From NCBI GenBank assembly GCA_903860135.1, contig CAIOPG010000002.1:1192-65191 (forward strand): DNA of 64,000 nucleotides, read 5' to 3'. The notes below the pieces were generated by a model, which had not been told where the DNA came from, did not search any database, and saw only the letters and a list, made by a program, of their open reading frames with translations. The first letter of the stretch is position 1. Each line of letters starts with the position of its first letter. Source of the stretch: Candidatus Omnitrophota bacterium. GTDB taxonomy: Bacteria; Omnitrophota; Gorgyraeia; Zapsychrales; Fredricksoniimonadaceae. Shown piece by piece: positions 19,710 through 47,735 of the stretch. The position numbers and the translations under genes are program-made.

Positions 19710-22700
19710 ATGCATCGAAATTCTATTTTAACCCGCATCTATGCCATGATCACGGTATTTGCCTTTGGGGTGAATATGATCGGTCCCCTCTATGCGCAAT
19801 CCGGCCCATCATTCCTGCCGGACCCGGGGCATATGATCGCGTTAAGCCGCCCGTTTAATCCCTTGCTCCTCAAAGGGCTCAAGGTTTACCCGGACAATCC
19901 TTTCCGGTTTGAATTCATCCTCAATCCGGGCGATGCCAGCCTGGCAGGCCAGCCCCTGAAAGAAGCATCGGCACGCCTCATCAAATATTTCCTTGCCAGC
20001 CTCACGATCCCTGAAAAAGACCTTTGGGTTAACCTGTCTCCGTACGAAAAAAACCGCATCGTCCCCGAAACTTTCGGGCAAACCGAAATGGGGCGCGACT
20101 TGCTGGCGCAGGATTATCTCCTGAAACAGATAACCGCCTCGGCCATTTATCCGGAAAGCGACCTTGGCCAGCAATTCTGGCATAAAGTCTATGCCCAGGC
20201 ACAGCAAAAATACGGCACAACAGATATCCCGATCGACACCTTCAATAAAGTCTGGATCGTCCCCGCCAAAGCGGCCCTGTACGAAAATGCCGCCGCCGGC
20301 ACAGCCTACATAACGGGATCAAGTCTCAAGGTCATGCTGGAATCAGATTATAAGGCGATCACAGAGAATGAGTCATTCGCACGTAGGGGCGGGTCCGTGA
20401 CCCGCCCTCTTTTATCGGATACGCCAACACCTCAAGGCGTCGACCGCATGTCATCCGATATCGCCAAGAACGTCCTCCGCGAGTTCATCATCCCCGCGCT
20501 CGAGAAAGAAGTGAATACAGGAGAAAACTTTGCCCAACTGCGGCAGATCTATCAAGCCCTGATCCTGGCTACATGGTACAAACAAAAAGTAAAAAATTCT
20601 CTCCTGTCACGCGTTTATGTTGACCGGCATAAAATTACAGGCGTCCGTATCCCTGACCCCCGGGAATCCGAGAAAATCTGGAGCCGTTACGTCGAGGCAT
20701 TCCAACAGGGCGTGTTTAACTATATCCAGGAAACCCGGGATCCGGCAACAATGGAAACGATCCCCAGAAAATTCTTCGCCGGCGGGGTTGACGCGTCCGC
20801 CATCTCCACCATCATCGATGCCAGCGGATCGATCGCGCCTTCAGATGCCGCAGGGAACAACACCACGTTAAGCATTTTATTGGTTAAAACCAAGGATAAT
20901 GCCAGTCATGAACAGCAGGCACAATCTCTTTATGAAAGCATATGGCCGTCCCTCGTGCCCTGGGAAAAACTGCCGGCCATCAGCCAGAAAGTTTTTGAAT
21001 GGAGCCGGGGGAAGAACGATTGGGAACAATTATTAAAACTCCGATATTTCCATCCCAGATCATTTCTCCTGAGCCACCTCCCTGCTCTTGCAAGTTTTTT
21101 GGGATCACAACAGGATTGGATTAATCTCTATCCTTTTATAAAACACATTGCCTCTTTCGATGAACACAACCAGGATGTCTTATACAATAAAACACTGCCA
21201 GCCCTCTACGCTTGCTTCAAGGATCGCTTGCCGATCGAACAGATCCTTGTTATTGCCGGCTTATTAAAAAACGAAATCCCCTCTCAAGAGATTGAAGTAT
21301 TCATCAACACGTTCATGAAGCCTCATCTTGAAACAACACCCCTGAGCGTAGAAGATTTTATCGCTGAATCAAACCGACTTTTAGAATGGAACCAGTACCG
21401 GAGTATAAACAATTTTTATCCATTTATAGGAAGTGCCCTGTCCAAGGATGATATAACACCATTGCTGGCATCATCCCAAATATCAGAACCTGACAAATTC
21501 AAGCTGTTGACCGGTTTTTGCGTCACGCATCCTGAAGCGGCCGCCCAGGATATGTTGACATATTTCAATCAATTCAAGTCCGGGATCACTTTATCCCAGG
21601 CCTCCTGGCTTATACTTGCTTTCGGGAAAATAAAGACACCTGTCATATTGCCCTATATGATAAATCTCTGGAATAAATCCGATGACGACAATGACTATGA
21701 GAACGGCAAAATAATATTCTTATCAACCATAAAATATTGGCCCAGGAACCTTATTACTGCTCTCCTAAAGTCAGACGACATTCCGCCTTCCTTCGCTCTA
21801 GAGATGATGGCTACCGAGGCAGATAAACAATCTTTACAAGATGCCCCCAACGATCTTTGCCGCACCCTCTTTAAAATATCTTCTTATCAAGAGATCATCA
21901 AAAGCCTCAGAATACTTAATAGAATACCTGACGCCCTCATCTTAACCCCCTTGATAGATCGCCTTTTTCAATCGATGACCACGAGCATCCAGTTGTCTCT
22001 AGACCATGGCATCGGTGCAGAAGGATCAACAATTAACATTGCTAATTTGAAATCCATCGGCACTTTCCTGCACTTTTTCATCACCAACGCCCCTAACCTC
22101 GCCTATAATTGCAAATCATCCCTGACCCGCCTGATCCGCCGATTGCCTATAGGTAACCGGCAGATCAAGCGCGTGAAGGATATTGCTGACCAGCTGGTGG
22201 ACGCCGTCGGGGGCCGACGGCTTATCCTTGAGGGGGGGGCACATTTTATCGTAGACCTGCGCGACGAGATTCATAAGCACATCAACTTTCTGACCGTGTT
22301 CAAGGTCAAAGCCTACGCCCATTATCTATCGACAGGCGATCAAACCATGCTCCGAGCCATGGAAGTCACGATCGATGACGAAGCTCCATTCAGCAAGCTG
22401 TCCCTAATGCAAACTAATCGCATAACAAATGTAGAAACCATCCTCAACGAGCTTATAGAGAAAATGAATATCATTTTTAACGGCGGTGGGACAAATTCCA
22501 AAGAAGTAATCGTTAACTACAATCTTTCCATCCATCCCCTTAACATCGCATTACGGAACAGCTTTGATGCTGTATTGACCACATCCGAAACCCTCGACAC
22601 TCTTCTGTCCCAACCGTTAAACAACGACAGCCTTGTTGAAGGCTTGCGACTCATGACGCAACTGAAAGAATCCCTCGCCACCTTAAGAGCAGATGAACGC

Positions 22701-24845
22701 TACCGGGATGAACAACTGTTATTCCTCCTGCTCGACGTTGAACTCGAGACCTACCTTTATCGCCTGCTGGCCAAAATACCGCCGGAACAAGAGATGACGA
22801 TCCCCACCCTGCTGGCCATTCTTCATCCGGTCATCGGCCTGGCCCGGGAGAGTTTCAATATTCAAGCACAGGAAGAACTGGGCGTGATCAGCGATGAATT
22901 ACGGCAGATCATCGACGCTGAAAAAACCCCGGGGTCAACCGTCAACGGCTCTCCCCTGCGTGTATTTGCCATTGTCGAGCGCCTCCTGCGGCGGATCCGG
23001 CAGTTCAGCCAGGAAACCAGCGCGGTCTACCAGCCTATCGTCAACGACCAAACCCGAGGCCAAAATATCTTCGAAAAGGAAAAAATTGATGACGTTACGG
23101 CTGATCTTATCCGCGTGGAAAATCCTTATCAGCTTTCGCTGGTCGCGCAACAGCTCGAAGCTGTCCTTGCCCGGGAACTTCACCTGTCCTGGCTGGTGGC
23201 TCGTCCGGGAACAGGCCAGGGGCAGTTGATCCATGTGAAAGAATCTGACAATCTCCAGCAGGTGATCGACCAGTTGACCCAACCTGCCATCCTGATCGCG
23301 GAACGTATCCCGAATAATATCCTGCTAAACCCCTATGTCCGCGGCTATGTGACGCGCGAAGAACAGGGGGTCCTGTCGCATCCCGCCATACGTTCCGACA
23401 ACAATGCGCCGGTGGTCCTTGTCCAGGCGATCGGCAGTAAATACACGGAACTGATCGCCACAGCCGAGGCATCGCCGGATGCATTCTTCCAGATAACCGC
23501 CGCCGATAACGAGGTTGCTATCAACAAGATTGATACACTTGATCCAATGACGACCACCGCCCCCCAGGCCGCTATCCCCGTCGAGGCTGATCTCAGCATC
23601 AGGGGTCTGATCACTGATATTAATGCCTATACGCCGGAAACTGTCGGCAACAAAGGCTACAGCTTAAAACGCTTGCACGATGCCATCGAACGCCTGAAAG
23701 CCGCTGGTCTGATTCCCCAGAACTTCATTCTTTCGGTCCCCCAGAGCATTGCCTTGCCCTTTGGCTATTTTGAAGCGATCCTCGATGCCAATGGCGCCAT
23801 GGGCCAGCAGATCCGTACCTTACGGGAGCAGTTGAAGGCTCCCCCCGATGAGAATGACACCAAAGGCATCCTGATCCAGCTTGAACAACTGATCCTGCAA
23901 CTTGATATCGATCCCGAAATGATTGACACGATCGCTCACATCATCGGTGCTTCCATGGTGCGGTTGTGCCCCACGGTCGATGATCTTTCCAGGAATGCCG
24001 CCGCCGGTGTCTATGGCTCATTTGAACACGTGGCACGCGCTCAATTGGGCGACCATATCCGACGTGGCTACGCATCGTTATACACCCTCACGGCCTTCAT
24101 GGACAGGCGCCAGCATCAGATAGAGGAAGATAACGTTCACGCCGCGATGATTTTCCAGATCATGGCAACAGGCAATGCTTTTGTGGCTTTCAGCCAGGAC
24201 CCTACCCTTCAAAATGAAACGGATCGGCGGAACGCCATGCTGTTGGAAATGATCCCCGGGCTGGGCAAGACGCTCATGTCCGGCGAACCCGAATTCCAGG
24301 GATCCCCCCACCGCTTCAGATACTCCGTCAGCGCAGGCAATGCCCAGCGCCTGGCGTATGCCAACAAGAGCTACCGCCTTGTCGTCGACGCTGGGGTCTT
24401 GCAGGTGCGTTTGAATGATTACCGGCAGGATCCTTTAAGCCAGGAAGAAAATCCTTCATGGATCAAGGATCTGTTTGCGCTTCTTCGGGATATAACGGGC
24501 GATGCGACCATCGGCCGTGATATGGAAGGCTCCGTTGAGTTCAAAGACGGGATCTACTATGTGTTTCTACTGCAGGACCGTGACAATATAAAGTTCAATA
24601 CGACCAATACCGCCGGACAAACCGGAAAAGACGCCAAACGCTCCACCGCCAACCCGGAATATACAGGCGGTATTGACCTAAGGGCCCCGGCGTTAACACT
24701 CAACAAGAGCACCGTGCATTTTCAGTTTTCCCCCGATCAACTCGCCGCCTTCGAAAGCGCCCCCGGCCTGCGCCCCGTGATCCTCAAAGCCAGCCCGATC
24801 AAGGATCTGAAACTCTTCTTATCAACCCCCGCTGTTTCCAGATGA
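19710..24845 (+). CDS. Giant exported multidomain protein 1 (1711 aa): conserved N-terminal domain of unknown function, AT-rich variable core, PEP-utilizer phosphohistidine domain plus PPDK_N-type nucleotide-binding domain, conserved C-terminal tail
   Basis: Single uninterrupted ORF. Predicted signal peptide ...MIGPLYA|QS. The N-terminal ~330 aa are ~55-60% identical to the N-terminus of ORF 43155..47735. The C-terminal TGGIDL...APGLRPVI...DLKLFL tail is shared with that ORF. Confidence 0.8.
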   Translation: MHRNSILTRIYAMITVFAFGVNMIGPLYAQSGPSFLPDPGHMIALSRPFNPLLLKGLKVYPDNPFRFEFILNPGDASLAGQPLKEASARLIKYFLASLTIPEKDLWVNLSPYEKNRIVPETFGQTEMGRDLLAQDYLLKQITASAIYPESDLGQQFWHKVYAQAQQKYGTTDIPIDTFNKVWIVPAKAALYENAAAGTAYITGSSLKVMLESDYKAITENESFARRGGSVTRPLLSDTPTPQGVDRMSSDIAKNVLREFIIPALEKEVNTGENFAQLRQIYQALILATWYKQKVKNSLLSRVYVDRHKITGVRIPDPRESEKIWSRYVEAFQQGVFNYIQETRDPATMETIPRKFFAGGVDASAISTIIDASGSIAPSDAAGNNTTLSILLVKTKDNASHEQQAQSLYESIWPSLVPWEKLPAISQKVFEWSRGKNDWEQLLKLRYFHPRSFLLSHLPALASFLGSQQDWINLYPFIKHIASFDEHNQDVLYNKTLPALYACFKDRLPIEQILVIAGLLKNEIPSQEIEVFINTFMKPHLETTPLSVEDFIAESNRLLEWNQYRSINNFYPFIGSALSKDDITPLLASSQISEPDKFKLLTGFCVTHPEAAAQDMLTYFNQFKSGITLSQASWLILAFGKIKTPVILPYMINLWNKSDDDNDYENGKIIFLSTIKYWPRNLITALLKSDDIPPSFALEMMATEADKQSLQDAPNDLCRTLFKISSYQEIIKSLRILNRIPDALILTPLIDRLFQSMTTSIQLSLDHGIGAEGSTINIANLKSIGTFLHFFITNAPNLAYNCKSSLTRLIRRLPIGNRQIKRVKDIADQLVDAVGGRRLILEGGAHFIVDLRDEIHKHINFLTVFKVKAYAHYLSTGDQTMLRAMEVTIDDEAPFSKLSLMQTNRITNVETILNELIEKMNIIFNGGGTNSKEVIVNYNLSIHPLNIALRNSFDAVLTTSETLDTLLSQPLNNDSLVEGLRLMTQLKESLATLRADERYRDEQLLFLLLDVELETYLYRLLAKIPPEQEMTIPTLLAILHPVIGLARESFNIQAQEELGVISDELRQIIDAEKTPGSTVNGSPLRVFAIVERLLRRIRQFSQETSAVYQPIVNDQTRGQNIFEKEKIDDVTADLIRVENPYQLSLVAQQLEAVLARELHLSWLVARPGTGQGQLIHVKESDNLQQVIDQLTQPAILIAERIPNNILLNPYVRGYVTREEQGVLSHPAIRSDNNAPVVLVQAIGSKYTELIATAEASPDAFFQITAADNEVAINKIDTLDPMTTTAPQAAIPVEADLSIRGLITDINAYTPETVGNKGYSLKRLHDAIERLKAAGLIPQNFILSVPQSIALPFGYFEAILDANGAMGQQIRTLREQLKAPPDENDTKGILIQLEQLILQLDIDPEMIDTIAHIIGASMVRLCPTVDDLSRNAAAGVYGSFEHVARAQLGDHIRRGYASLYTLTAFMDRRQHQIEEDNVHAAMIFQIMATGNAFVAFSQDPTLQNETDRRNAMLLEMIPGLGKTLMSGEPEFQGSPHRFRYSVSAGNAQRLAYANKSYRLVVDAGVLQVRLNDYRQDPLSQEENPSWIKDLFALLRDITGDATIGRDMEGSVEFKDGIYYVFLLQDRDNIKFNTTNTAGQTGKDAKRSTANPEYTGGIDLRAPALTLNKSTVHFQFSPDQLAAFESAPGLRPVILKASPIKDLKLFLSTPAVSR
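23290..23520 (+). other. PEP-utilizing-enzyme mobile (phosphohistidine) domain within giant protein 1
   Basis: VARPGTGQGQLIHV...PAILIAERIPNNILLNPYVRGYVTREEQGVLSHPAIRSDNNAPVVLV aligns to the consensus G.VTe.GG.TSHAAI.ARE.GIPAVVG. The predicted catalytic His is in LSHPAI. Confidence 0.7.
23620..24580 (+). other. PPDK_N / PEP-synthase-type ATP(nucleotide)-binding domain within giant protein 1
   Basis: ETVGNKGYSLKRL (cf. LGGKNASLGEM), IPQNFILS (cf. VPNGFATT), VRLCPTVDDLSRNAAAGVYGSF (cf. VRSSATAEDMPDASFAGQQETF), AFVAFSQDP...LLEMIPGLGKTLMSGE (cf. GVMFSRDP...IEAAWGLGEAVVSG). Confidence 0.75.
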
Positions 24846-27800
24846 AATAGATCACCGGATACACCAATAATTCGAGAATGAAACTGCTGAAGATCCCGCC
24901 GATCATGGGGGCGGCGATGCGTTTCATGACATCGGCGCCGGCGCCTGTGGACCACATGATGGGGACAAGGCCCATGAACATGGCGGCAACCGTCATCAGT
25001 TTCGGGCGGACACGTTTGACCGCGCCATGGACAATGGCTTCCGTTAAGTCTTCCCGGGTTTTCATTTTCCCCTGACGCACGGCATCGTCATAGGCCATAT
25101 CGAGAAAAAGGAGCATGAAGACCCCTGTTTCAGCGTCAAGCCCCATCAGCGCGATCATGCCCACCCAGACGGCGATCGACATATTGTACCCCAGCAGCCA
25201 CAACAGCCAGACAGCCCCCACCAGAGAAAACGGCACGGCCAGCATGACGATGCCAGCCTTGACCGGTGAACGGGTGTTCATATACAAAAGGATGAAAATA
25301 AGAAAGATCGTCAGCGGCAATACCACACGCATCCGCTCGCGCACGCGCAGCATATTCTCAAACTGGCCGCTCCACTGCAGGGAATACCCCGTCGGCACCT
25401 TCAACTGCGCCTCAACGGCCTTCCTGGCTTCCGCGACAAAACTGCCCACATCACGTCCGGCAATGTCCACATAAACATACCCCGCCAGCATGCCGTTCTC
25501 ATCCCGGATCATGGCCGGCCCCGTGGTAAGGTTGATCGTCGCCAGCTGTTCAAGCGGCACATGGGCACCCGAAGGCGTCGGCACGAGGACGCGGCGCAGT
25601 TGGGGCAAATCGTCGCGGAAGTCGCGGGCATAACGGACATTCACCGTATAGCGTTCCCGGCCTTCAATCGTCGTGGTCACGGTTTCCCCGCCGATCGCCG
25701 ACACAATGACATCCTCAACATCCTTGACAGACAAACCATACGGCGCCAAGGCCAGACGCTTGATATCAAAATCAATGAAATACCCGCCGGTCACGCGCTC
25801 GGCGTAAACACTGCGCGCCCCCTTGATCCCCTTGACAATACCTTCAACTGCGATCCCGACCTTCTCGATCTGCGCCAGGTCCGCGCCATAGACCTTGATC
25901 CCGACCGGCGTCCTGATGCCCGTCGATAACATGTCGATCCTGGCTTTGATGGGCATGGTCCACGCATTGGACACCCCCGGGAACTGCATCTTTTTGTCGA
26001 GGTCGGCGATCACGTCTTCCCAGGAGATCCGGTCAGGCCAGATCGCACGGAAAGGCATCTGCAGAAAACCAGGCAACGCGGAATACCAGCGCGGTACATG
26101 CCGCCATTCACTTTCTGGCTTTAAAATGATCGTTGTTTCCATCATGGAAAACGGTGCCGGGTCCGTCGATGTTTCCGCCCGTCCGGCCTTGCCGAACACA
26201 CGCTCCACTTCAGGCACCGTTTTGATCACCTTGTCCATCTGCTGTAACAGCTCCCCCGCCCCGGTCACGGACAAACCCGGCAAGGTGGTCGGCATATAAA
26301 GGATAGCCCCTTCATTGAGCGGCGGCATGAACTCCGACCCCAGGCGCATGAAAACCGGGATCGTCGACAGCACTAGGATGCCCGCCGCGATCAAGGTCTG
26401 TTTCCGGTACTTCAGGACAAAACGGCATACCGGTTCATAATACTTGAAAAGCACCCGGCTGACAGGATGCTTTTCTTCCGCATAATATTTCCCGACAAAA
26501 AGGCTATTGAACGCCGCAGATATCCAGACAGGCTTAAAACAAATCGGATCAAGGCGCGTGAAAAACATCCGCATCGCCGGATTGAGCGTTACAGCGAGGA
26601 TCGCGGCTATGGCCATGGCAAAATTCTTGCTGAACGCCAGCGGCCTAAAAAGCCGCCCTTCCTGATCGAGCAAGGTGAACACAGGCAAAAACGCCACCGC
26701 GATCACCAGCAGTGAAAAAAATACCGACGGCCCAACCTCTTTCAGGGCCTTAAGGAGGACATCACGGTAATCCCCCTGACGCCCCCCCGCATCCCACAAT
26801 TGAAGTTTCTTGTACGCATTCTCGACTTCGATGATAGCGCCATCAACGAGCACCCCGATCGAGATCGCGATCCCGGCCAGCGACATGATATTGGATGTCA
26901 GTTTCATCATGAGCATCGGGATAAAACTGAGGAGCACCGCGATGGGGATCGTGATAATGGGAACACTGGCTGAAGGGAAATGCCACAGGAAGAAAATGAT
27001 GACCAGCGCCACAATGATCATTTCCTCGATCAACTGATGCTTGAGCGTATCAATGGCGCGATGGATCAGATCCGAACGGTCATACGTCGTCACCAGCTCA
27101 ACGCCCGGCGGCAGGGACGCCTTGACGTCCTTCAACTTTTCTTTAACCCGCTCAATGACATTCAGGGCATTTTCGCCTGAACGCATGAGCACAATGCCGC
27201 CCACGGTATCGCCTTCCCCATCCAGATCAGCGATCCCCCGCCGCATCTCCGGGCCGATCACCACCGACGCCACATTTTTAACAAGGATCGGCGTCCCCTG
27301 GGCATCATTGCCGATCACAATATCCTCAATATCCTTGACCGACTTGATATATCCCCGCCCGCGCACCATATACTCTGTGCCCGCCAGCTCAATGAGGCGC
27401 CCCCCCACATCGTTATTGCTGTTACGGACCGCATCAATGACACGCGTGAGCGGCATATTGTACGCCAAGAGCGCGTTAGGCTTCACGTTCACCTGATACT
27501 GCTTCTGAAACCCGCCCACCGACGCCACCTCGGCCACCCCCGGCACCGCCTGCAGCCAGTACCGCAGATACCAATCCTGGAACGAACGCAACTGCGCGAG
27601 GTCATTCTTCCCCGACTTATCGACGAGCGCATATTGATACACCCAGCCCACAGATGTCGCGTCAGGGCCGATCTCTGTCTTGACACCTTCGGGCAATCGC
27701 GGCAGTACCTTGTTCAGGTACTCGAGCGTCCGGCTGCGTGCCCAATAAATATCCGTGCCATCCTTGAAAATAATATAAACAAAAGAATAGCCGAAGTCCG

Positions 27801-28053
27801 AGAAGCCACGGATCGATTTCACATCCGGCGCCCCCAGGAGGGCCGTCACAACAGGATAGGTGACCTGATCCTCAATGATATCCGGCGAGCGATCCCAGCG
27901 GGAATAAACAATGACCTGCGTATCCGAAAGATCCGGGATAGCATCGAGCGGAATATTCCTGATACTGTACACAGCCCCCAATATAGCCGCCAGCGTCAGG
28001 ATCATGACGATATATTTATTTTTCGCCGAGAATTCTATGATTTTCTCGATCAT
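24799..28053 (-). CDS. cusA: Heavy-metal efflux RND pump, CusA/CzcA family
   Basis: 1084 aa, 12-TM RND. MIEKIIEFSAKNKYIVMILTLAAILG...IPLDAIPDLSDTQVIVYSRW... matches the CusA N-terminus. Its 3' end overlaps the 3' end of giant gene 1 (convergent). Confidence 0.9.
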   Translation of the reverse strand: MIEKIIEFSAKNKYIVMILTLAAILGAVYSIRNIPLDAIPDLSDTQVIVYSRWDRSPDIIEDQVTYPVVTALLGAPDVKSIRGFSDFGYSFVYIIFKDGTDIYWARSRTLEYLNKVLPRLPEGVKTEIGPDATSVGWVYQYALVDKSGKNDLAQLRSFQDWYLRYWLQAVPGVAEVASVGGFQKQYQVNVKPNALLAYNMPLTRVIDAVRNSNNDVGGRLIELAGTEYMVRGRGYIKSVKDIEDIVIGNDAQGTPILVKNVASVVIGPEMRRGIADLDGEGDTVGGIVLMRSGENALNVIERVKEKLKDVKASLPPGVELVTTYDRSDLIHRAIDTLKHQLIEEMIIVALVIIFFLWHFPSASVPIITIPIAVLLSFIPMLMMKLTSNIMSLAGIAISIGVLVDGAIIEVENAYKKLQLWDAGGRQGDYRDVLLKALKEVGPSVFFSLLVIAVAFLPVFTLLDQEGRLFRPLAFSKNFAMAIAAILAVTLNPAMRMFFTRLDPICFKPVWISAAFNSLFVGKYYAEEKHPVSRVLFKYYEPVCRFVLKYRKQTLIAAGILVLSTIPVFMRLGSEFMPPLNEGAILYMPTTLPGLSVTGAGELLQQMDKVIKTVPEVERVFGKAGRAETSTDPAPFSMMETTIILKPESEWRHVPRWYSALPGFLQMPFRAIWPDRISWEDVIADLDKKMQFPGVSNAWTMPIKARIDMLSTGIRTPVGIKVYGADLAQIEKVGIAVEGIVKGIKGARSVYAERVTGGYFIDFDIKRLALAPYGLSVKDVEDVIVSAIGGETVTTTIEGRERYTVNVRYARDFRDDLPQLRRVLVPTPSGAHVPLEQLATINLTTGPAMIRDENGMLAGYVYVDIAGRDVGSFVAEARKAVEAQLKVPTGYSLQWSGQFENMLRVRERMRVVLPLTIFLIFILLYMNTRSPVKAGIVMLAVPFSLVGAVWLLWLLGYNMSIAVWVGMIALMGLDAETGVFMLLFLDMAYDDAVRQGKMKTREDLTEAIVHGAVKRVRPKLMTVAAMFMGLVPIMWSTGAGADVMKRIAAPMIGGIFSSFILELLVYPVIYFIWKQRGLIRRVSDP

Positions 28054-28154
28054 AAAATATTACTCCAAAATATATTATCGATCCAAAAGAACATCCTACA
28101 CTTCACTCTTTATATACAAGTACGCATTAGAAGCTGTAAGCATGCCTCGGCTAA

Positions 28155-29024: not shown

Positions 29025-29037
29025 AATCTCTCCTGGC

Positions 29038-36576: not shown

Positions 36577-36577
36577 T

Positions 36578-39510: not shown

Positions 39511-39517
39511 AGCCCTC

Positions 39518-39985
39518 TCACATTGTCTTCAGGACCTGGGTCATCGATAAGGCGGCACGCGCGGCGGCAGCCCCCTTGTTATCGGTGTCGCCTTCCAAGG
39601 CGCGGTCCTGGCATAGCTTGATCGTATCCGCCGCCAGCACTTCAAAAATAACCGGCTTACCTATGGCCAGCATCACATCCATAAGGCCACGGGCGCACGC
39701 CTCGGCCACCAGCTCATAATGCAACGTTTCACCACGGATCACAGCCCCTAAGCAGATCACCGCAAGGATATTCTTCCGCTGACCCATTTTAAGGGCCGTC
39801 AGCGGCAGTTCAAAAGCACCGGGGACGCGCACGATCTCTATTTCACATTCACACACACCATGCCGCGAAAACTCGTCCAGGCAGGCCTTCAGGAGGCTTT
39901 CGGTGATGGTAGAATGGAACTCGGCGACCGCCACAGCAAAGCGCGGTTTTCCGGCACACGAGGGCTGCGTCACTTTCTTTACCAT
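39518..39985 (-). CDS. ribH: 6,7-dimethyl-8-ribityllumazine synthase
   Basis: [32 protein letters not shown]...[10 protein letters not shown] matches RibH. The start is taken at the internal MVKK; the ORF-track start overlaps ribBA. Confidence 0.85.
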
Positions 39986-39986
39986 T

Positions 39987-41186
39987 TTACAGCCAATGCC
40001 CCATCTTCTGCTTTTTGGCTTCCAGGTATTTTTTGTTCTTTTCATTATGGGCGATCTGCAAGGGGACACGCTCAACCACGCTGAGCCCGTAGCCTTCAAG
40101 GCCGACGATCTTGCAAGGATTGTTGGTCAGAAGCCTGATCTGCTTCAGCCCGATATCCACCATGATCTGGGCACCGATCCCGTAATCGCGCAAGTCCGCC
40201 GCAAAACCCAGCGCTTCATTGGCCTCGACCGTATCCATACCCTTGTCCTGAAGCGTATAAGCTTTCACCTTGTTGACAAGCCCGATGCCACGGCCTTCCT
40301 GGCGCATATAAAGCAGGACACCGGCACCTTCCTTGGCCAAACGCTTCATCGATTCCTGCAGCTGCCCGTTGCAATCACAGCGCAAGGACCCGAACACATC
40401 GCCGGTCAGGCATTCCGACTGCACACGCACCAAAACTGGCGTCGTATCATCGACCTTGCCGAGCACCAGCGCCACATGCTGATAATTATCGATCGTTGAT
40501 GAATAAACGATCATCCTGAAATCGCCATTGGCCGTCGGCAGGACCCCCTCAACTTCACGGGTAATAAACTTCTCGTTCTTGCGGCGGTATTCGATCAGGC
40601 TGTCGATCGTGCAGATCTTCAGTTTATGTTTCTTGGAAAATTCAACAAGGTCATTCGTGCGCGCCATGGTGCCATCGTCATTCATGATCTCGCAAATAAC
40701 ACCCGCCGGATAAAGGCCGGCCATGCTGGTAAGGTCAACCGAAGCTTCCGTATGCCCGGCACGGACAAGGACGCCGCCTTTCTTGGCGCGCAACGGGAAC
40801 AGATGCCCCGGGGTGATCAGGTCTTTGGGGGTGGATTTCGGATCAATGAGAAGCTTGACCGTATAGGCCCGATCAGCCGTCGAGATCCCGGTCGTGGCAC
40901 CATGCGCCGCATCAACCGTGATCGCCCAGCCGGTATTGCATGGCTGATGCAGGTCGCTCGTCGCATCCTTCATGGGGTAAAGCCCCAGCGCATCCAGGCG
41001 TTCAGGGAGCATGGGCACACAAATAAGCCCGCGCGCATGCCTCGCCATAAAATTGATGACTTCCGGCGTTACAAATTCGGCCGCCACCAGCACATCGCCT
41101 TCATTTTCCCGCCCTTCATCGTCCATGACGATGACCATGCGGCCCTGACGGAGTTCTTCAAGAATTTCGGGGATAGGATGGAACAT
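39987..41186 (-). CDS. ribBA: Bifunctional 3,4-dihydroxy-2-butanone-4-phosphate synthase / GTP cyclohydrolase II
   Basis: 399 aa. DHBP synthase motif ([15 protein letters not shown]) and GTP cyclohydrolase II Zn motif [14 protein letters not shown]. Confidence 0.9.
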
Positions 41187-41206
41187 AGAGAATTCTTTCC
41201 TTTGTC

Positions 41207-41237
41207 AAATGACCAAAAAAACCGCCTTCCCGGCGGT
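41207..41237 (-). terminator. Hairpin plus U-run in the ribBA leader (putative attenuator/terminator)
   Basis: Minus-strand ACCGCCGGGAAGGCGGUUUUUUUGG lies between a TTGACA-17 nt-TATTAT promoter-like element (about 41262..41290) and the ribBA start. The leader is too short for an FMN riboswitch. Confidence 0.3.
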
Positions 41238-41302
41238 AATAGTTTTTCATAATATTCTAATTATAAAAGCTTGTCAAGCCGTTTATCCCCCCTTCAGACG
41301 TC

Positions 41303-42532
41303 CTATATTGATGCGAAATAAGTTTCGATGGGCGTTGAAAGAAATTCTTCCAGTTTGATCCCTTCAGGACCAACAAGAATGACGCGCGCCTGGGGAAACT
41401 TTTTTAAAAACAACTGAAATTGCTCTGCGTGTCTTTCATAATTTGTTTTGACTTCAATGGCTATCAGCTTTGAGCCTTTGCGCAGGACAAAATCAATTTC
41501 ATTTTTATCGTCACGCCAGTAATACACCTCATAATTATGCATTTTCCCCTGATTGATCAAATAAGCGCCAACCGACGCCTCCACGAGGCGCCCCCAATAC
41601 ACAGGATCTTTTACGGCTTCCACCCTCGGGAAATTCTTGACAGCGGAAATTAACCCGGAATTTAAAGGAACCCACTTGGGAGAAGAATTTCTCCGAAGAA
41701 GATCTTTACCTGACCATTTTTGTAAACCCAAAAGAAGATAGGTTTGTTCGAGCATTCGCTGATAGCCGGAAATTGTCAGCACACTCTTGACATCTTTAAA
41801 ATGCCCCTGGATCTTCCGATAAGCCAATTCTTGCCCTGCATAATGGCACGCCAAAAAAAACAGGTTGCGCAAAAGTGCCGGATTGCGCACTTCGGTCAAT
41901 AGCGGAATGTCCCGCGATAGAACAGGCTCAATGACGGCATCCATAATATAATGCCGCCAGCGCTCTTCATCATGCCTGAAAGTGGCTCCCCCCGGATACC
42001 CGCCAAAATACAAATAATCTTCTAAAGAAAAATCAAAGGCTTCCTTACATTCAAGATACGACCAATGCATGAACCATATGATCTCAAAGCGCCCCATTAA
42101 ACTTTCCGACAACCCTTTCTGCATCATCAACGCCGATGACCCCAATAAAACGACACAGACATTCCTTTTTTCAAACGAATCCTCATCCCACAACCTTTTG
42201 ATCTCAGTTGACCATGCCCTGATCTTTTGAATCTCGTCAAAAACAAGAATAACTTTATTCCCGCCTTTTTCCTTATCCCTGGCTTGATGCCAATACGACG
42301 TAATCCACTCAACACCCGGGGTCGGCGAAACAAAGTCAGCAATAGCATAAACATACGGATCGGAGAGTTCTCTTATAACACCATTGACCGCCCACGACTT
42401 GCCCACCTGACGCGGGCCAAGCACAATCTGAATCGTACGACGCGGCTCCGCCAGCCTGCTTTTTAGGATACCTGCCACCGGATGCACGTAATCTTTATTA
42501 TTCATAACACCTTTGGTAATCAGATGATACAA
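41303..42532 (-). CDS. AAA+ ATPase, AAA_14/DUF4143 family
   Basis: Walker A GPRQVGKSW, Walker B VILVFDEIQ. The C-terminal DUF4143-like region is typical of COG1373 predicted ATPases. Confidence 0.75.
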   Translation of the reverse strand: MYHLITKGVMNNKDYVHPVAGILKSRLAEPRRTIQIVLGPRQVGKSWAVNGVIRELSDPYVYAIADFVSPTPGVEWITSYWHQARDKEKGGNKVILVFDEIQKIRAWSTEIKRLWDEDSFEKRNVCVVLLGSSALMMQKGLSESLMGRFEIIWFMHWSYLECKEAFDFSLEDYLYFGGYPGGATFRHDEERWRHYIMDAVIEPVLSRDIPLLTEVRNPALLRNLFFLACHYAGQELAYRKIQGHFKDVKSVLTISGYQRMLEQTYLLLGLQKWSGKDLLRRNSSPKWVPLNSGLISAVKNFPRVEAVKDPVYWGRLVEASVGAYLINQGKMHNYEVYYWRDDKNEIDFVLRKGSKLIAIEVKTNYERHAEQFQLFLKKFPQARVILVGPEGIKLEEFLSTPIETYFASI

Positions 42533-42686
42533 ATTTGGTAATCATGATTTTCAATTATAATAATGATATTTAATTTGTCAACAAAAAGTCGGAACCTATC
42601 CAAATTTTGAACATATTTAGCGCGATAGTATACAGGCATTCTAAATGCTCTTGTAATTATAATTCATAACCCTTAAGATAGTTCCC

Positions 42687-43166
42687 ATGACACAGCTCCA
42701 ACACCTCGCGCAACACTTGACCGCCAGCCGCCAAACTTTAGCCACCGCCGAATCCTGCACCGGCGGGCTGATCGCCCATACCCTGACCAATATCCCCGGC
42801 GCTTCGGCCTGGTTTAAAGGCGGGGTCGTGGCTTATGCCAATACGGCCAAATCTGATATGCTGGGAGTCGCTCCTGAGCTGATCCTGCAACACGGCGCGG
42901 TCAGTGCCCCAGTGGCAGAAGCCATGGCTCAGGGTGCACGCCTGCGCTTTGATACCACTTTCGCCATCGCCACAACCGGCATCGCCGGTCCATCGGGCGG
43001 CACACCCGCCAAGCCCGTGGGCCTTGTCTTCATCGCCGTTGCCTCGGCCAAAACAACAACCGCCTCAAAATTTCTTTTTACCGGAACCCGCGCCCGGATC
43101 AAACGCCAAACCCTGGCCACAGCCATCAAACTGCTCAACGCACGACTGTCACTTTCAATGCTGTGA
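42687..43166 (+). CDS. CinA C-terminal domain protein (nicotinamide-nucleotide amidohydrolase PncC-like)
   Basis: 159 aa. LATAESCTGGLIAHTLTNIPGASAWFKGGVVAYAN matches CinA_C. Confidence 0.8.
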   Translation: MTQLQHLAQHLTASRQTLATAESCTGGLIAHTLTNIPGASAWFKGGVVAYANTAKSDMLGVAPELILQHGAVSAPVAEAMAQGARLRFDTTFAIATTGIAGPSGGTPAKPVGLVFIAVASAKTTTASKFLFTGTRARIKRQTLATAIKLLNARLSLSML

Positions 43167-46100
43167 AGACGGCATTCCCAGAAACGCCGGCAGATCCACC
43201 GCATCCTCCACGCCAATAATCACCGGCACAAATCCCGGCGCCGCCGCCAACCGCGCCACCTCAGCCGGGTCAACATCAAAAACATCCCCCATCGCACCCG
43301 CTGTCGAGATCCGCATCCGGTCAGCCGTCAGATCAATACCACCGGTGCCATTCGCCCTGTCAATCACTGGACTCTTCAACAATTCACTTTGATTAACTAT
43401 CCTCTTTAAGATACTATCCGCTGTTAAATTACCCTCTTGACTCGCCTTTTCCAAAGCACGAATAATACCTAAACTATTTTCAACCAGAAACTTATTCATT
43501 TCCTCAACGTTATTTATCCCGCTCGGGAGAATTTTACGGATACGCGCACTATATCTAACCCCTGAAGAATTTACCTTGTTTTTCCCTTGCAACAATAAAT
43601 CATGAATTGCAAAAGCGAAGATCTGATGCGCAAGGAATCGACTGTTCGGATCCAGGGATATCCATAAAAACAAAGAAGGCTGTTTATCTTTGTAATTTTC
43701 AACAACCTGAATTGCAAGAATATCTGAACTTTTCATGGAAACAGCTACATAAATATCCGTTCCCGTCTTCGTATTAGATAATTCATCAACCAAAACCAAC
43801 AATCCCAATATTTTGCCAGTCATAGCGAATTGAGGATTAATTGTAATGACCTTTTTTAATTTTTCCAGAAAAAGGGTTCTCTTGTTTCCTTTTAAATCAC
43901 TGAATCTAACAACATCAGCCAATAAATATTGCCCATCACGTTCAAAAACAACCTTATTCACTAATTCACCAGTAAACAAATTAAACGCACCCTCATCTTT
44001 CAACTCATTATTTGAAGCAAAGTCAGCGACTGTATTGCGTTTTACTACATCATTTTGACCCTGAGTTGTCGTTGCGATCTCGCGCAAATAGGCTGTTTCC
44101 CGCGTATGCCGGGCCATAAGGTCATCGCCTGATGCTACGGTGATGTAGGGATTTTGTTGCTGGATCAAGCCCAGCATCGCCGTAGCAGATGCCTGTTCTT
44201 TTTGGGAGACTTCTTTTGTTTCAGCCATGCGCCATCCCAATATCGCTTTAGAATAAATCGTCCGTAACAACACGCTGTTCAAGCGCGCAACTTCCTGATC
44301 ATTCAAAGAATTTTCATCCTTGACAGCCTTTTGCAACAAAACTTTAGCATCCTCGTCCAGCCAGCGCTTGTCAGCATCTTCGACATAACGATAAAAATCC
44401 CGCCGTTGCACGATGGCATTAATCAAATTCTTCGGCGTGCTCCGTGGATAAAGGGTCTTTAATAAAAATCTTTTGAATCGTTTCCCATCCGAAGTATTAT
44501 TCAGTTTGATCCATTCTTGTGCATCAATAAGGTCCCTTGATTGAACGCTAAGAGTCTTAATAATGGTATTAATTGCGTGCAAGTGGTCATCACTTAATGC
44601 ATGGGCCTGCTTTAACTTAACAAAAGCAATAAATGATGCTTCGCTTTTATTCAAAGCGTCAATGAGCTCTTCCATAGAAGTCCCTGACGAAATGGACATC
44701 TTCGTATCAGATTCAATTAAACGAGTCAATGCCTGTAGTTGATCAAAATCTTCAAATTCAGCCACTTTCAAATCCAGAAAGCCATTAATCACTTGCATAA
44801 AATCACTCTTTAAAACATCCTTCAACGAAGCATTTGTAAGCTTCGCTAATTCTTGAAGCATTAACTGATTAGTCTTCTGGTGCTTATCGTCCCCGATGGC
44901 CTCACGCAATAATTCAACATCAAGGTCGCCCGGCGTGACCACAAAAGAATTCTTCATAAAATTATGCCTTATAAGGGCGCGCACCTGACTCCGGTTCAAC
45001 GGTTCATTTATCTTGCGAGGCTTTTTGTTCTGAATATCCATCAACCAACTAACACGCTGGCCGGTCTTCGTTTCCCCTTTCACTAGAGCAGCGTTCAATT
45101 CCTGAAGAAAACTTTCAGATCCCAGCAATGCATTAACCCTGTCAATGTCTGTATCTGCCGACGGGACATTAAATCCGGCACGCTCAATCGCCGCAATAAC
45201 CTCTACCACCCTGGCATTGCTGAATTTATCGCCGCGCCTTTGAAACTCTGGCTTTAAAAAAAACGAAAGGCTTTGCAATAATCCATGGATCACACGATGC
45301 GCATTATGCCATAAAAATACAAACCCTTCTTTTTCGATCTGTTCCTGGTCATGCCAGGCAAACGCAGTGACCTGATCGACCGCCGAAAAACTACCTTGCC
45401 GGTAGAAATTTATCCGCGATCCCATCACGAGATGACCTGTTTTCTTTTCAACAACCTGAACAGCCATAATCTCCAACTGCCCCTTCTTGTTTCTTTCTAC
45501 AGCCGCATAAACCTCGCGTTGGCCCAACAACCCCTTGGCAATGGTTTTAGCCAATGAAAGCGTCGAAAAAACATCCCCGGCATTGATGGCCCCCATACTC
45601 CGGCTCTGCCTCACCAAGGCCTTGACAAATGCTTGCCGCAATAGCTTCGCCTCCTCACTTTTCGTCGCGCTCACCTTGACCACATCCACAGCCCGGTACT
45701 CGCCCCCGGGGCTTTGCATGATCACTTTCTTTTCCAAAGCGCCATTGAACAGACGAACATCCTCGGTTGAATTCTCCTTTAAACTTGCCTGTCCATCCGA
45801 TCCTTGTTGTTCGGACAAGCTGTGTCCCAAGTTTTTATTGATTCTATTATTCAAATCAGGGGCATTCTGACCGGGGATCAACAAATTCTCATTGTCTCTC
45901 AATTGCTCCAACATCTTGTTTGCTGACACATTCCCCGCAAGCGCATCCGCGTTCAGTTCCACAATAATGTTATCCTGCACATACTTCAGCATACCCGGGA
46001 GATTGCTACGCATCGACGCCCTCTTCACCTCTCTAGATGACGCTCCAGGGGGCACATTGCTGAACCCAAAAGCCCCTCCCGCATCCATCATATCCAAAGA

Positions 46101-47735
46101 CACACCAGCGGCATTGAGCTCATTGATAACCAAAAATAATAACCGTTGCGCCACGGCCATCTGCCCTTCCTCGGCTACCCAGGGCATAATGGATATAGGC
46201 AACTTATTAGTATTTTTCCAAGTCATTTTCCTGGGCCTGCGCACCGGCTGAACCGCCAGTATCCGCCCATCAGGCATAACCGCCGCATATAAATCAATTT
46301 CCTGCGCTATGGCGTATTTCTCCCTGGTCAATGCATCCAGCAAATGCGCAAGAGTTATGAACGATGTTGCTATACTTTGCTTATGGAGCCACTGCTTTTT
46401 CAGAGACTCGATCAATTTTTCCCCTGCGGGTGTCGCCACATTTCTGATCCTGACGACCTTAACAAATTGATAAACACCCTCGACCTTGGCTACGACGGGT
46501 TTCGTCAGTACTTCTCCCCCCCGGGCAGTAAAAATAGCTGCCTGCTCAGCGCTTATCTGCACGTTGACCTGCCTCGATTGAACAGGAAGCTCGGCAGGGT
46601 CAACTGTACTGACCATGGTCATAGCCGTGATCTTGGCCAAAACCCCGCCCGCGAAATATTTACGCGGGATCGTCTCGCGTGTCAGGGGGTCATACTCTTC
46701 GCGGATATAATTATAAACACCTTTTTTGAAAGCCTCCACATAACGGCCCCAGATTTTGACCGCTTCTTGCGGATCGTTGATATTCACGCCCGCAACCTTC
46801 CGGCGGTCGACATACACCCGTGACAACAGGCTGTCCTTGACTTTCTTCTTGTACCAGGTAGCCAGGATCAGCGAGTGGTAAACCTGACGTAATTGAGTAA
46901 AATTCCGGCCTTCGTTCACCTCTTTTTCAAGGACAGGAATAATGACTTGCCGGAGAATCTCCTTGACATCATCCGAGGCAGACGCCGTCGGTGCAACATA
47001 CCCCGCCTGTTGACGTGCCGCCAGATAATCCGAATCCAGCATGACCTTCAGGCGCGATTTGACCACATAAGCCGTATGGGTTGGCGCATTCTCGTAAACA
47101 ACCACTTCGGCAGGGACGATCCATACCTTGTTAAACGTATCGACCGGAATATTGGCACTGCCGAACTTCTGCGCCGCCAGGGCATAGATCTTCTGCCAGA
47201 ACAGCTTGCCGGTGTCCCCTTCAGGATAGATCAGGCTTGAGGTGATCTGCTTCAGGAAATAATCCTGCGCCAGGAGGTCGCGGCCCATCTCGGTCTGGCC
47301 AAAGGCTTCCGGGACAATGCGGTCTTTCTCATAAGGGCTGAGATTGACCCACAGATCATCTTCCGGTATGGTCAAGGCGGCCAGAAAATACCGGATCAAC
47401 CGGCTGGCCGTCGCACGTTCAGAGGCCTCGGGAACAGCCCCGGCAGCCTCACCGGGATCGAGGATAAAATCGAAGCGGAACGGTTCCTTAACATAAAGCT
47501 TAACCCCATTCAGCACCGCAGGATGACACGCGTTGCTTAAGCCCACCAGTCTTCCGGGCAACGGCATCACAACCTCGGCATACGCCAGCGGAAAAAAAGA
47601 TTCCGTTAAAAATACCACACAAATGAACAAAGCCACAATCCGCCGCATGCCTACTCCCTTTTGCCAATAATGCCTATTTTTATTGAAATGACCACCGATG
47701 AATAAAAATATAACATATAGAATCATGGTTAACAA
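43155..47735 (-). CDS. Giant exported multidomain protein 2 (~1500 aa), a paralogue of giant protein 1: conserved N-terminal domain, three internal repeats, AT-rich variable core, conserved C-terminal tail
   Basis: Uninterrupted ORF. The likely start is MRRIVALFICVV... (about 47651) with signal peptide ...PLAYA|EV. The N-terminus is homologous to ORF 19710..24845. The C-terminal TGGIDL...APGFVPVI...DLPAFL tail is shared. Confidence 0.8.
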   Translation of the reverse strand: MLTMILYVIFLFIGGHFNKNRHYWQKGVGMRRIVALFICVVFLTESFFPLAYAEVVMPLPGRLVGLSNACHPAVLNGVKLYVKEPFRFDFILDPGEAAGAVPEASERATASRLIRYFLAALTIPEDDLWVNLSPYEKDRIVPEAFGQTEMGRDLLAQDYFLKQITSSLIYPEGDTGKLFWQKIYALAAQKFGSANIPVDTFNKVWIVPAEVVVYENAPTHTAYVVKSRLKVMLDSDYLAARQQAGYVAPTASASDDVKEILRQVIIPVLEKEVNEGRNFTQLRQVYHSLILATWYKKKVKDSLLSRVYVDRRKVAGVNINDPQEAVKIWGRYVEAFKKGVYNYIREEYDPLTRETIPRKYFAGGVLAKITAMTMVSTVDPAELPVQSRQVNVQISAEQAAIFTARGGEVLTKPVVAKVEGVYQFVKVVRIRNVATPAGEKLIESLKKQWLHKQSIATSFITLAHLLDALTREKYAIAQEIDLYAAVMPDGRILAVQPVRRPRKMTWKNTNKLPISIMPWVAEEGQMAVAQRLLFLVINELNAAGVSLDMMDAGGAFGFSNVPPGASSREVKRASMRSNLPGMLKYVQDNIIVELNADALAGNVSANKMLEQLRDNENLLIPGQNAPDLNNRINKNLGHSLSEQQGSDGQASLKENSTEDVRLFNGALEKKVIMQSPGGEYRAVDVVKVSATKSEEAKLLRQAFVKALVRQSRSMGAINAGDVFSTLSLAKTIAKGLLGQREVYAAVERNKKGQLEIMAVQVVEKKTGHLVMGSRINFYRQGSFSAVDQVTAFAWHDQEQIEKEGFVFLWHNAHRVIHGLLQSLSFFLKPEFQRRGDKFSNARVVEVIAAIERAGFNVPSADTDIDRVNALLGSESFLQELNAALVKGETKTGQRVSWLMDIQNKKPRKINEPLNRSQVRALIRHNFMKNSFVVTPGDLDVELLREAIGDDKHQKTNQLMLQELAKLTNASLKDVLKSDFMQVINGFLDLKVAEFEDFDQLQALTRLIESDTKMSISSGTSMEELIDALNKSEASFIAFVKLKQAHALSDDHLHAINTIIKTLSVQSRDLIDAQEWIKLNNTSDGKRFKRFLLKTLYPRSTPKNLINAIVQRRDFYRYVEDADKRWLDEDAKVLLQKAVKDENSLNDQEVARLNSVLLRTIYSKAILGWRMAETKEVSQKEQASATAMLGLIQQQNPYITVASGDDLMARHTRETAYLREIATTTQGQNDVVKRNTVADFASNNELKDEGAFNLFTGELVNKVVFERDGQYLLADVVRFSDLKGNKRTLFLEKLKKVITINPQFAMTGKILGLLVLVDELSNTKTGTDIYVAVSMKSSDILAIQVVENYKDKQPSLFLWISLDPNSRFLAHQIFAFAIHDLLLQGKNKVNSSGVRYSARIRKILPSGINNVEEMNKFLVENSLGIIRALEKASQEGNLTADSILKRIVNQSELLKSPVIDRANGTGGIDLTADRMRISTAGAMGDVFDVDPAEVARLAAAPGFVPVIIGVEDAVDLPAFLGMPSSQH

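Follow-up and report, generated by a model that had tools for sequence, protein, structure and literature searches.

In the type IX secretion system (T9SS) of Bacteroidota, cargo proteins combine a Sec signal with a short conserved C-terminal domain (CTD) that recurs on many unrelated proteins of one phylum, and the machinery is encoded elsewhere. The TpsA/CdiA proteins of two-partner secretion (TPS) carry, behind a Sec signal, a conserved N-terminal domain of ~250-330 amino acids (aa) by which a long, variable protein is directed to its transporter. In MARTX toxins and LapA-like adhesins of the type I secretion system (T1SS), conserved N- and C-terminal regions surround swappable internal modules, and the mycobacterial PE/PPE proteins, the MIX/FIX/RIX proteins of the type VI secretion system (T6SS) as well as the LXG proteins of the type VII secretion system (T7SS) are lineage-restricted, multiplied families in which a conserved N-domain marks the substrates and the rest varies. 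For the phylum Omnitrophota, giant genes have been published whose products measure 10-147 thousand aa (kaa), mostly have many transmembrane helices and are flanked by loci resembling the type II secretion system (T2SS) or Tad (bioRxiv 10.1101/2023.11.21.568195; 10.64898/2026.06.07.730766). Here we describe two genes, named ProtA and ProtB, from a stretch of 64,000 nucleotides (nt) of a Candidatus Omnitrophota bacterium (assembly GCA_903860135.1, contig CAIOPG010000002.1, positions 1,192 to 65,191 of the forward strand), which as a whole is called the window in the following. Both belong to a very large, unnamed Omnitrophota family in which a signal peptide, a conserved N-terminal domain (N-domain) and a conserved C-terminal tail enclose a hypervariable core, an architecture which suggests that proteins are sorted or delivered here in a manner not yet described.

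According to the list of open reading frames (ORFs) and their translation, ProtA (19710..24845, plus strand) encodes 1711 aa with a dikinase-like cargo, while ProtB (43155..47648, minus strand) encodes 1497 aa with an orphan cargo. The original prediction had described two exported paralogs with conserved head and tail and unrelated cores, and BLASTP of the two products bears this out. Their N-termini, i.e., signal peptide plus N-domain, share 207 of 357 residues (58%, E=8e-125), the last 60 residues form a second colinear match (35% identity, E=7e-6), and no significant match lies between the termini, such that the cores are unrelated. The shared blocks that had been quoted are present and are not of low complexity (DLWVNLSPYEK, FGQTEMGRDLLAQDY, TFNKVWIVPA, LILATWYK, IPRK-FAGG and TGGIDL...APG..PVI...FL), and no third copy of either module was found in the window by tblastn. 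Two details required correction. The ProtB ORF had been given as 43155..47735, reaching a TTG at 47735, but the start is most likely the ATG at 47648 (MRRIVALF...), because GGGAG lies 8 nt upstream of it and the public gene call P0268 has exactly the same product. Furthermore, proteins of 1.5-1.7 kaa are large, yet not "giant" by Omnitrophota standards, as they had been labeled.

The genes are not assembly artefacts, a concern that had been raised along with them. The exact ProtA product is called on six contigs and that of ProtB on five (NCBI, ENA and Logan assemblies, scaffolds of 400-426 kb), and a full-length ProtA ortholog, P0270 (1695 aa), is 61% identical and has the same architecture, with 69% identity in the N-domain, 60-65% in the cores and 48% in the tail. 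Because the exact products recur in separate assemblies and the ortholog has the same layout, we rejected the possibility of an assembly chimera. Comparison of the two N-domains shows ProtA and ProtB to be ancient paralogs: their DNA is 68-71% identical, no common word reaches 17 nt, and the N-domain of ProtB is about equally near to copies in other genomes (61%) and to ProtA (58%). Gene conversion of the N-domain was rejected on account of the same DNA identity and the absence of a shared word of 17 nt. Since ancient paralogs without long shared DNA words have retained this similarity, the N-domain is kept at 55-60% identity by selection.

The reach of the family was determined with the N-domain and the tail separately. 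A search with the ProtB N-domain gave 1,267 matches, each of them a cluster at 90% identity, the best with 61% identity; the majority of these clusters are unnamed, and the named ones are nearly all "hypothetical protein" of Candidatus Omnitrophica/Omnitrophota, with several locus tags per metagenome-assembled genome (MAG). A pattern scan for the N-domain in one genome per GTDB species yielded at least 589 confirmed loci, the best 80 of which are labeled as Omnitrophota/Omnitrophica MAGs, except for about 20 generic "uncultured Planctomycetales" third-party annotation (TPA) records and two of "Ca. Elulimicrobium". One MAG supplies 7 of these best 80 loci, corresponding to at least ~9 genes when tandem copies are counted. 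The family apparently is restricted to Omnitrophota. A viral origin was rejected, since N-domain relatives occur in only 5 of 2.9 million viral contigs, with weak matches. Two IMG/VR contigs that are classed as viral (L084, L085) carry divergent N-domain relatives with 34-36% identity, which may be a more distant subfamily or mis-binned host DNA.

For the tail, a profile of 71 positions was searched against 1.84 billion representatives of 50%-identity clusters and matched 5,810 of them at E<=1e-3 and 2,510 at E<=1e-10. Each of the 150 matches listed extends to within a few residues of the C-terminus, in proteins of up to 2,646 aa. Most of the listed proteins of at least ~700 aa open with a signal peptide and the N-domain (hidden Markov model E 1e-160 to 1e-186), and the rest resemble gene fragments; within the family, the N-domain profile scores between E 1e-140 and 1e-186. 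In 79 loci that were fetched, the N-domain is found in 95 ORFs, the tail in 73 and both in 60, with 59 of the latter complete at both ends. The tail-only ORFs are all contig-edge fragments or 3′ halves of frameshift-split family genes, and only about five complete N-domain ORFs lack the tail; these counts show that the coupling of N-domain and tail is obligatory. The description of fixed termini, a swappable core and an export signal, originally made from ProtA and ProtB, thus turns out to be a rule for thousands of proteins, as seen with the tail profile, the N-domain loci and the 79 fetched loci. In five of the loci (L004, L028, L042, L047, L080), a frameshift or stop splits a family gene into an N-domain ORF and a tail-bearing ORF, and these split genes could be pseudogenes, sequencing errors or programmed events.

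The plan of the members is a signal peptide, an N-domain of ~330 aa, a hypervariable core of 0 to >3,300 aa and a C-terminal tail of ~60 aa. In the definition of the family, the N-domain after the signal peptide runs WVNLSPYE...TFNKVWIxP...PRKYFSGG and the tail at the extreme C-terminus GGIDL...PVII...FLG, and both window proteins follow this plan. Complete members in the 79 loci measure 781-2,591 aa, and same-strand tandem arrays are common, the maximum being five family genes in locus L024. Essentially no hydrophobic segment of transmembrane quality is found beyond the signal peptide in family members. Six more ORFs run off their loci at >3,200-3,700 aa (L040, L058, L065, L068, L070, L077), one of these oversized members having multiple WD40 propellers and another a protein kinase together with a methyltransferase. 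The other extreme is P0024 (438 aa, on a 44-kb contig), a natural cargo-less member in which the signal peptide and N-domain are followed by 30 residues and then the tail. Since it lacks cargo, the end modules may form a functional unit alone.

The reading of Sec-type signal peptides at the start of both proteins can be maintained. Those predicted for ProtA (aa 1-29, 19710..19796, plus strand, MHRNSILTRIYAMITVFAFGVNMIGPLYA|QS, ending in GPLYA|QS) and ProtB (aa 1-24, 47577..47648, minus strand, MRRIVALFICVVFLTESFFPLAYA|EV, ending in FPLAYA|EV) show the n/h/c-region layout, in which an n-region with Lys/Arg precedes a hydrophobic stretch and an A-x-A site (PLYA|QS and PLAYA|EV). The alanine at position -1 is at least 90% conserved in the family alignments, and cleavage of the signal peptide is therefore probable.

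The N-domain spans aa 30-359 in ProtA (19797..20786, plus strand, ending in PRKFFAGG) and aa 25-335 in ProtB (46644..47576, minus strand, ending in PRKYFAGG). The original prediction had been unable to name either terminal module, and we arrive at the same result: the N-domain has no match in Pfam, NCBIfam, PADLOC or PHROGs, a search of PDB sequences with its profile gives nothing, and the tails of both proteins match nothing in the same four collections (Pfam and NCBIfam at E<=0.1 or E<=1). In an AlphaFold2 (AF2) model of P0024 from a 123-sequence alignment, the N-domain is predicted with confidence (predicted local distance difference test, pLDDT, mostly >90; predicted template modeling score, pTM, 0.75 overall) as two beta-hairpin sheets together with six helices, some of which form a long helical hairpin. 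Compared with PDB structures, this model has no fold match, and no likeness to S-layer, pilin or coat proteins or to a hydrolase. By these tests, the N-domain would be a new fold or a fold without a solved relative. An alignment of 62 N-domains (~340 columns) contains 44 invariant columns, 16 of which are polar or charged (N, S, E, T, D, D, Y, K, N, K, D, R, E, N, R, Q), and this therefore points to a specific partner, a ligand or an active site beyond the requirements of a stable core. In ProtB numbering, the invariant polar positions include N103, S105, E108, D125, D130, K134, N174, K175, R234, E244, N246, R255 and Q256.

The tail covers aa 1645-1711 in ProtA (24642..24842, plus strand, TGGIDL...APGLRPVIL...LKLFLS) and aa 1428-1497 in ProtB (43158..43367, minus strand, IDRANGTGGIDL...DPAEVARL..APGFVPVIIGV...LPAFLG), the consensus being GGIDLTPANMNLQTQN.GGEIKFHLDPAMLQQLQNAPGFVPVIINIQP...L..FLG. 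Modeled alone (AF2, ProtB tail, 44 sequences), it is mostly coil with one helix (pLDDT 64, pTM 0.33), and within the full-length P0024 model it reaches a pLDDT of 37-56. As the tail is modeled poorly both alone and in context, it probably is a linear recognition element rather than an autonomous domain, and the lack of an autonomous fold is what would be expected of a recognition signal.

A further shared element is the short motif D-x-A-M. In the 59 complete members it occurs 104 times, compared with 9.6 occurrences expected from composition (11-fold enrichment). It is found 0-60 residues after the N-domain in 31 of the 59, often twice, and 0-25 residues before the tail in about 15; in addition, it has a fixed site within the tail (FHLDPAML). 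The flanks of 373 distinct occurrences outside the tail are not conserved, as is characteristic of processing or docking sites, and from its sequence context the motif looks like one of these. The window proteins have degenerate versions only: in ProtB, IDRAN (aa 1428-1432, about 43353-43367) lies five residues ahead of GGIDL, and ITAMT (aa ~341-345) follows the N-domain, while ProtA has VDASAI (aa ~360-366). The searchable Omnitrophota literature contains no description of the N-domain, the tail or this motif, which is not proof of absence elsewhere.

It is conceivable that the family consists of self-processing pro-proteins, in which the N-domain would be a novel hydrolase or maturase and the cargo would be freed at the D-x-A-M sites. 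The strong enrichment of the motif, its position at the borders of the core and its variable flanks are reminiscent of a protease site, and the many invariant polar and charged residues of the N-domain could belong to a catalyst. However, the invariant polar residues, to which Ser105 belongs, comprise no His, no Cys and no Ser-His pair of the kind that is typical of proteases, and the modeled fold matches no hydrolase. Furthermore, the motif follows the N-domain in only about half of the complete members and precedes the tail in about a quarter, and ProtA and ProtB retain it in degenerate form. We consider self-processing quite unlikely, though it would be compatible with a delivery function.

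The core of ProtA (aa 360-1644, 20787..24641, plus strand) has no similarity to that of ProtB, and among 5.8e9 proteins its only homolog is the ortholog P0270. Close to its end lies an ATP-grasp nucleotide-binding domain (PPDK_N, Pfam PF01326, aa 1310-1627, 23637..24590, plus strand; 61.9 bits against a cut-off of 27, E=8.5e-17). It is preceded by a segment resembling a phosphohistidine (pHis) domain (aa 1160-1247, 23187..23450, plus strand) that matches Pfam GWD1_pHisD with 18.9 bits, under the cut-off of 27 bits. This segment contains the sequence GVLSH(1224)PAIRS, which we take to resemble the His motif of glucan-water dikinases (GWD) and phosphoenolpyruvate (PEP) synthases (PEPS), and its SH.AIR motif is conserved in P0270. 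The dikinase region also gives partial NCBIfam matches to rifamycin phosphotransferase and, far below cut-off, to PEP synthase, and matches the PDB entries 5hv6/5fbs, which are rifampin-phosphotransferase-type "PEP synthase" structures (E=8e-6). The cargo of ProtA resembles the PEP-utilising dikinases (PEP synthase, rifampin phosphotransferase, alpha-glucan water dikinase) in its above-threshold PPDK_N domain and in having SH.AIR as a candidate phosphohistidine motif upstream of the ATP-grasp domain, which is the order of glucan-water dikinases and not that of PEP synthase. It differs from them in that Pfam has no model match for the PEP-utilizers swivel domain or the PEP-utilizers_C TIM barrel, in the ~800 unannotated residues ahead (aa 360-1150), and in being set in an exported protein with conserved ends.

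The core of ProtB (aa 336-1427, 43368..46643, minus strand) is an orphan. It has no match in Pfam, NCBIfam, PADLOC or PHROGs and no sequence match in the PDB, and among 5.8e9 proteins it finds only itself, in a word-indexed search of limited sensitivity. By eye, three segments of it (aa ~375-520, ~640-800 and ~1215-1360, about 43570-46525) share a common pattern, V..V....G.Y..VDVV+... and.IYAAV....ILAVQVVE, which suggests a thrice-repeated domain of ~150 aa; a BLAST self-comparison gave nothing significant for this three-segment repeat. Both cores are AT-richer than their surroundings. The ProtB core has a GC content of 0.444 and a third-position GC content (GC3) of 0.477, compared with a GC3 of 0.625 in its own N-domain, and aa 360-1150 of ProtA (20787-23159) have a GC content of 0.469 and a GC3 of 0.544, with a GC content of 0.525 in the N-domain of the same gene. 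Elsewhere, GC3 is 0.61-0.68 in the N-domains and tails of the two genes and 0.57-0.70 in the neighboring housekeeping genes. Such a mosaic composition would fit cassette-like, fast-evolving or foreign cargo.

Across the family, the cores are hypervariable and mostly of cytoplasm type, with cofactor-dependent and eukaryote-like domains prominent among them. Pfam assigned 66 different families to 55 of them, the commonest being SAM (S-adenosylmethionine) methyltransferases, Radical_SAM, HATPase_c, Glu/Leu/Phe/Val and Ala dehydrogenases and PPDK_N, followed by HEAT, TPR, GDSL lipase, histidine phosphatase, GNAT and PP2C; HAD, protein kinase (Pkinase), ankyrin and long WD40 arrays are found in other members. 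Neither typical extracellular modules (immunoglobulin (Ig)-like, FN3, CBM, glycosidases, peptidases) nor toxin families are among the 25 most frequent of these core families.

Such a content would be expected of intracellular signaling and metabolic proteins, which raises the question whether the proteins leave the cytoplasm at all: the hydrophobic N-terminus might be an uncleaved anchor, and the whole protein might remain inside the producer. Indeed, Omnitrophota giants of similar content have been argued to be largely anchored in the inner membrane with their bulk in the cytoplasm (bioRxiv 10.64898/2026.06.07.730766). However, the Lys/Arg-rich n-region, the h-region of 10-15 residues and the conserved A-x-A|Q/E predict an N-in/C-out topology with cleavage, and there is no second transmembrane segment that would bring the chain back to the cytoplasm. 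Membrane tethering thus is very unlikely in our view.

A serious, if unlikely, alternative is that the N-domain, which the tail may clasp, serves as a self-assembling subunit of an envelope or surface structure, in which paralogs co-assemble and display their cores at the surface. The existence of the cargo-less P0024 would make sense for such a scaffold, as would the extreme conservation of the N-domain among otherwise unrelated paralogs, as if all had to fit one lattice, the many copies per genome with their frequent tandem arrays, and the prediction that all members are soluble exported proteins. Surface display is harder to reconcile with cargo enzymes of cytoplasm type that need ATP, NAD(P), SAM or Fe-S clusters, with the absence of typical surface domains from the 25 most frequent cargo families, and with a predicted N-domain structure that is unlike S-layer, pilin or coat proteins.

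The original prediction had also considered that the locus might encode a system. We find that it is two scattered genes: ProtA and ProtB lie 18 kb apart (24845 to 43155) on opposite strands, with housekeeping genes between them, and no secretion apparatus is found anywhere in the 64-kb window. Among the 79 family loci, there is no linked machinery, immunity gene or chaperone and no conserved neighbor gene, the biggest cluster of neighbors being a generic response regulator in 8 of the 79. The 3′ end of ProtA overlaps a convergent acrB-like gene (24799-28053) by 47 bp (24799-24845), and that of ProtB overlaps a convergent cinA (42687-43166) by 12 bp (43155-43166). Because both stops overlap convergent genes, neither gene has a co-directional partner downstream, and a same-strand immunity gene directly downstream is missing for both. 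These overlaps also leave no room for intergenic terminators.

This bears on the earlier analogy to polymorphic effectors, and more generally on the idea that the family are classical polymorphic toxins with immunity, or T1SS substrates of the MARTX or LapA type. The conserved ends and variable middle do recall MARTX and LapA-like adhesins, a C-terminal, unstructured tail of ~60 aa could pass for a T1SS signal, and there is a very weak match to NCBIfam MARTX_Nterm (E=0.15, 9 bits against a cut-off of 700). However, the members carry a Sec signal peptide, RTX repeats (no HemolysinCabind match) and toxin domains are lacking, the C-terminus is conserved and not variable, and both genes abut convergent genes in place of an immunity gene, with no ABC/MFP/TolC or other conserved neighbor. 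We regard this idea as largely refuted and leave it a very slim chance; the analogy fails at the conserved C-terminus, the convergent genes and a cargo that is not toxin-like.

How, then, might such proteins be used? We infer that the two end modules serve as bookends in sorting or delivery. The signal peptide would carry the chain across the inner membrane, the bookends would be recognised by a partner common to the phylum and encoded elsewhere, be it a sorting, secretion or attachment machinery, and the core would be interchangeable cargo. A single common partner for all copies is suggested because the N-domain is held at 55-60% identity by selection. On general biochemical grounds, enzymes that depend on ATP, NAD(P), SAM or Fe-S clusters cannot work in the periplasm or the medium, and because such cargo would be unworkable there, the final site of action would most plausibly lie inside another cell, either host or prey, or in a vesicle rather than in the periplasm. 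This destination agrees with the host-dependent or predatory lifestyle that has been proposed for Omnitrophota (PMC10066038; bioRxiv 10.1101/2023.11.21.568195). We give Sec export followed by a shared system that recognises the bookends of interchangeable cargo an even chance of being correct.

Several observations weigh against it. For proteins exported by Sec, a cargo of radical-SAM enzymes and NAD(P)-dependent dehydrogenases is unusual, and export is predicted from sequence. The cargo-less P0024 suggests that N-domain and tail may have a function of their own and may not be pure address labels, and the sixteen invariant polar or charged residues of the N-domain would fit the active site of an enzyme as well. 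AF2 gave nothing on the binding partner of the tail, and with no secretion or sorting machinery linked in the window or the 79 loci, the proposed partner is hypothetical. A stronger version of the delivery model would make N-domain and tail the substrate signals of a new Omnitrophota-wide pathway that brings a very large and rapidly evolving set of cofactor-dependent and eukaryote-like enzymes from these ultra-small cells into host or prey cells, with the family as the main effector arsenal of the phylum, D-x-A-M as the processing site and the machinery as a new class of secretion system whose targeting domain has a new fold. This version is tentative, and we think that it probably goes too far.

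As to the remainder of the window, nearly all other genes are on the minus strand and are housekeeping genes. ProtA has MraW and AcrB as its neighbors, and ProtB has CinA and BaxI; the genes between the two comprise a resistance-nodulation-division (RND) metal-efflux pump, a toxin-antitoxin pair, a CCA/polyA polymerase, a recombinase of XerC/D type, the NAD-dependent ligase LigA, the riboflavin operon, an AAA ATPase (AAA_14/DUF4143) and CinA. Beside ProtA lies a Cus-like heavy-metal RND set (24799-29350, minus strand) of an AcrB-family pump, a membrane-fusion protein of HlyD type with a heavy-metal-binding domain (HMBD) and a small YHS-domain protein, followed at ~30866-31494 by a PIN toxin with a small partner ORF. 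The riboflavin cluster (36578-41186, minus strand) contains ribD, ribE, a PHP-domain gene, ribH and ribBA, and no flavin mononucleotide (FMN) riboswitch was detected in the whole window at the Rfam gathering threshold. Further window genes encode major facilitator superfamily (MFS) and ATP-binding cassette (ABC) transporters, a B12/iron-type ABC importer, pyridoxal phosphate (PLP)-dependent Cys/Met enzymes, tRNA-Pro, tRNA-Arg, PgpA, PgsA, a RimO-like enzyme, RodZ, FtsK, PNPase, an alginate-export-type porin, a TPR protein and a sigma-70 factor. An unusual combination is found at 58021-59196 (minus strand), where one protein joins a ParA/MinD-type ATPase (AAA_31/CbiA) with a glycogen-binding module (AMPK1_CBM/CBM48) at its C-terminus.

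Omnitrophota are widespread, uncultured and ultra-small bacteria that are suspected to be parasites or predators. The family described here is large enough to be a major feature of their biology. It offers a concrete, searchable handle on how they act on other cells, with thousands of members, many copies per genome, a confidently modeled N-domain that matches no known fold, a signal-like tail and a cargo whose biochemistry is meaningful only within a cell. With the profiles of N-domain and tail, the candidate exported repertoire of any Omnitrophota genome can be listed; the same two profiles can be used for phylogenetic profiling of the partner machinery, and they define constructs for localisation. 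Even if the delivery model is wrong, the end modules are two large protein domains absent from Pfam and NCBIfam; they make up families that have no annotation so far, and the fold of one of the two is apparently new. That a Sec signal is combined with a radical-SAM, dehydrogenase or kinase cargo needs explaining in any case, and this mismatch bears on the similar puzzle of the giant proteins.

These giants, of the Archaeovorin or dockerin type, are found in the same phylum and likewise combine signal peptides with cytoplasm-type domains, and no domain can be identified in their N-terminal regions either; methyltransferase, HATPase, GNAT, HAD, radical SAM and HEAT/TPR domains are common to both. 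The family differs from them in its size of 0.4 to >3.7 kaa, in having no transmembrane helices and in the absence of a conserved flank. A link between its oversized members and the published giant genes is possible.

With T9SS cargo, the family shares the Sec signal, the short conserved C-terminal module on many unrelated proteins of one phylum and a machinery that would be encoded elsewhere. However, neither tail matches Por_Secre_tail / TIGR04183, and whereas the CTD is an Ig-like beta-sandwich of ~80-100 aa, the tail is predicted as coil with one helix. T9SS cargo has no shared N-domain and consists of extracellular enzymes and adhesins, not of cytoplasm-type enzymes. To our knowledge, no T9SS is known in Omnitrophota, and the window contains none of the T9SS core genes PorK/L/M/N, SprA and PorU/V. 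The likeness to TpsA lies in the Sec signal and the long conserved N-domain that follows it, which in this family has no Haemagg_act (TPS) match and is modeled as a mixed alpha/beta fold with long helices instead of a beta-helix. Neither window gene has an Omp85 (TpsB) neighbor, and the C-terminus is conserved and not polymorphic. The latter also sets the family apart from the polymorphic toxins (CdiA/Rhs/LXG), since the conserved tail occupies the extreme C-terminus in the 60 ORFs with both modules and in all 150 listed tail matches.

MARTX and LapA-like proteins have the LapG TAAG and cysteine protease domain (CPD) sites as a parallel to D-x-A-M, but they lack a Sec signal peptide, contain RTX repeats and are encoded beside T1SS genes, none of which is seen here. 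The PE/PPE, MIX/FIX/RIX and LXG families resemble ours in being restricted to a phylum or genus, highly multiplied and marked by a conserved N-domain; they are Sec-independent, their helical N-domains are much smaller, and they have no conserved C-terminal tail. Because CTD, TPS and RTX matches are absent, the folds are predicted to be different, the adjacent genes include no partner and the C-terminus is conserved instead of polymorphic, the family belongs to none of the T9SS, TpsA/CdiA, MARTX/LapA or PE/PPE-like classes. Its logic nevertheless resembles that of each, and it thus is a variation on the theme of conserved trafficking modules combined with a variable cargo.

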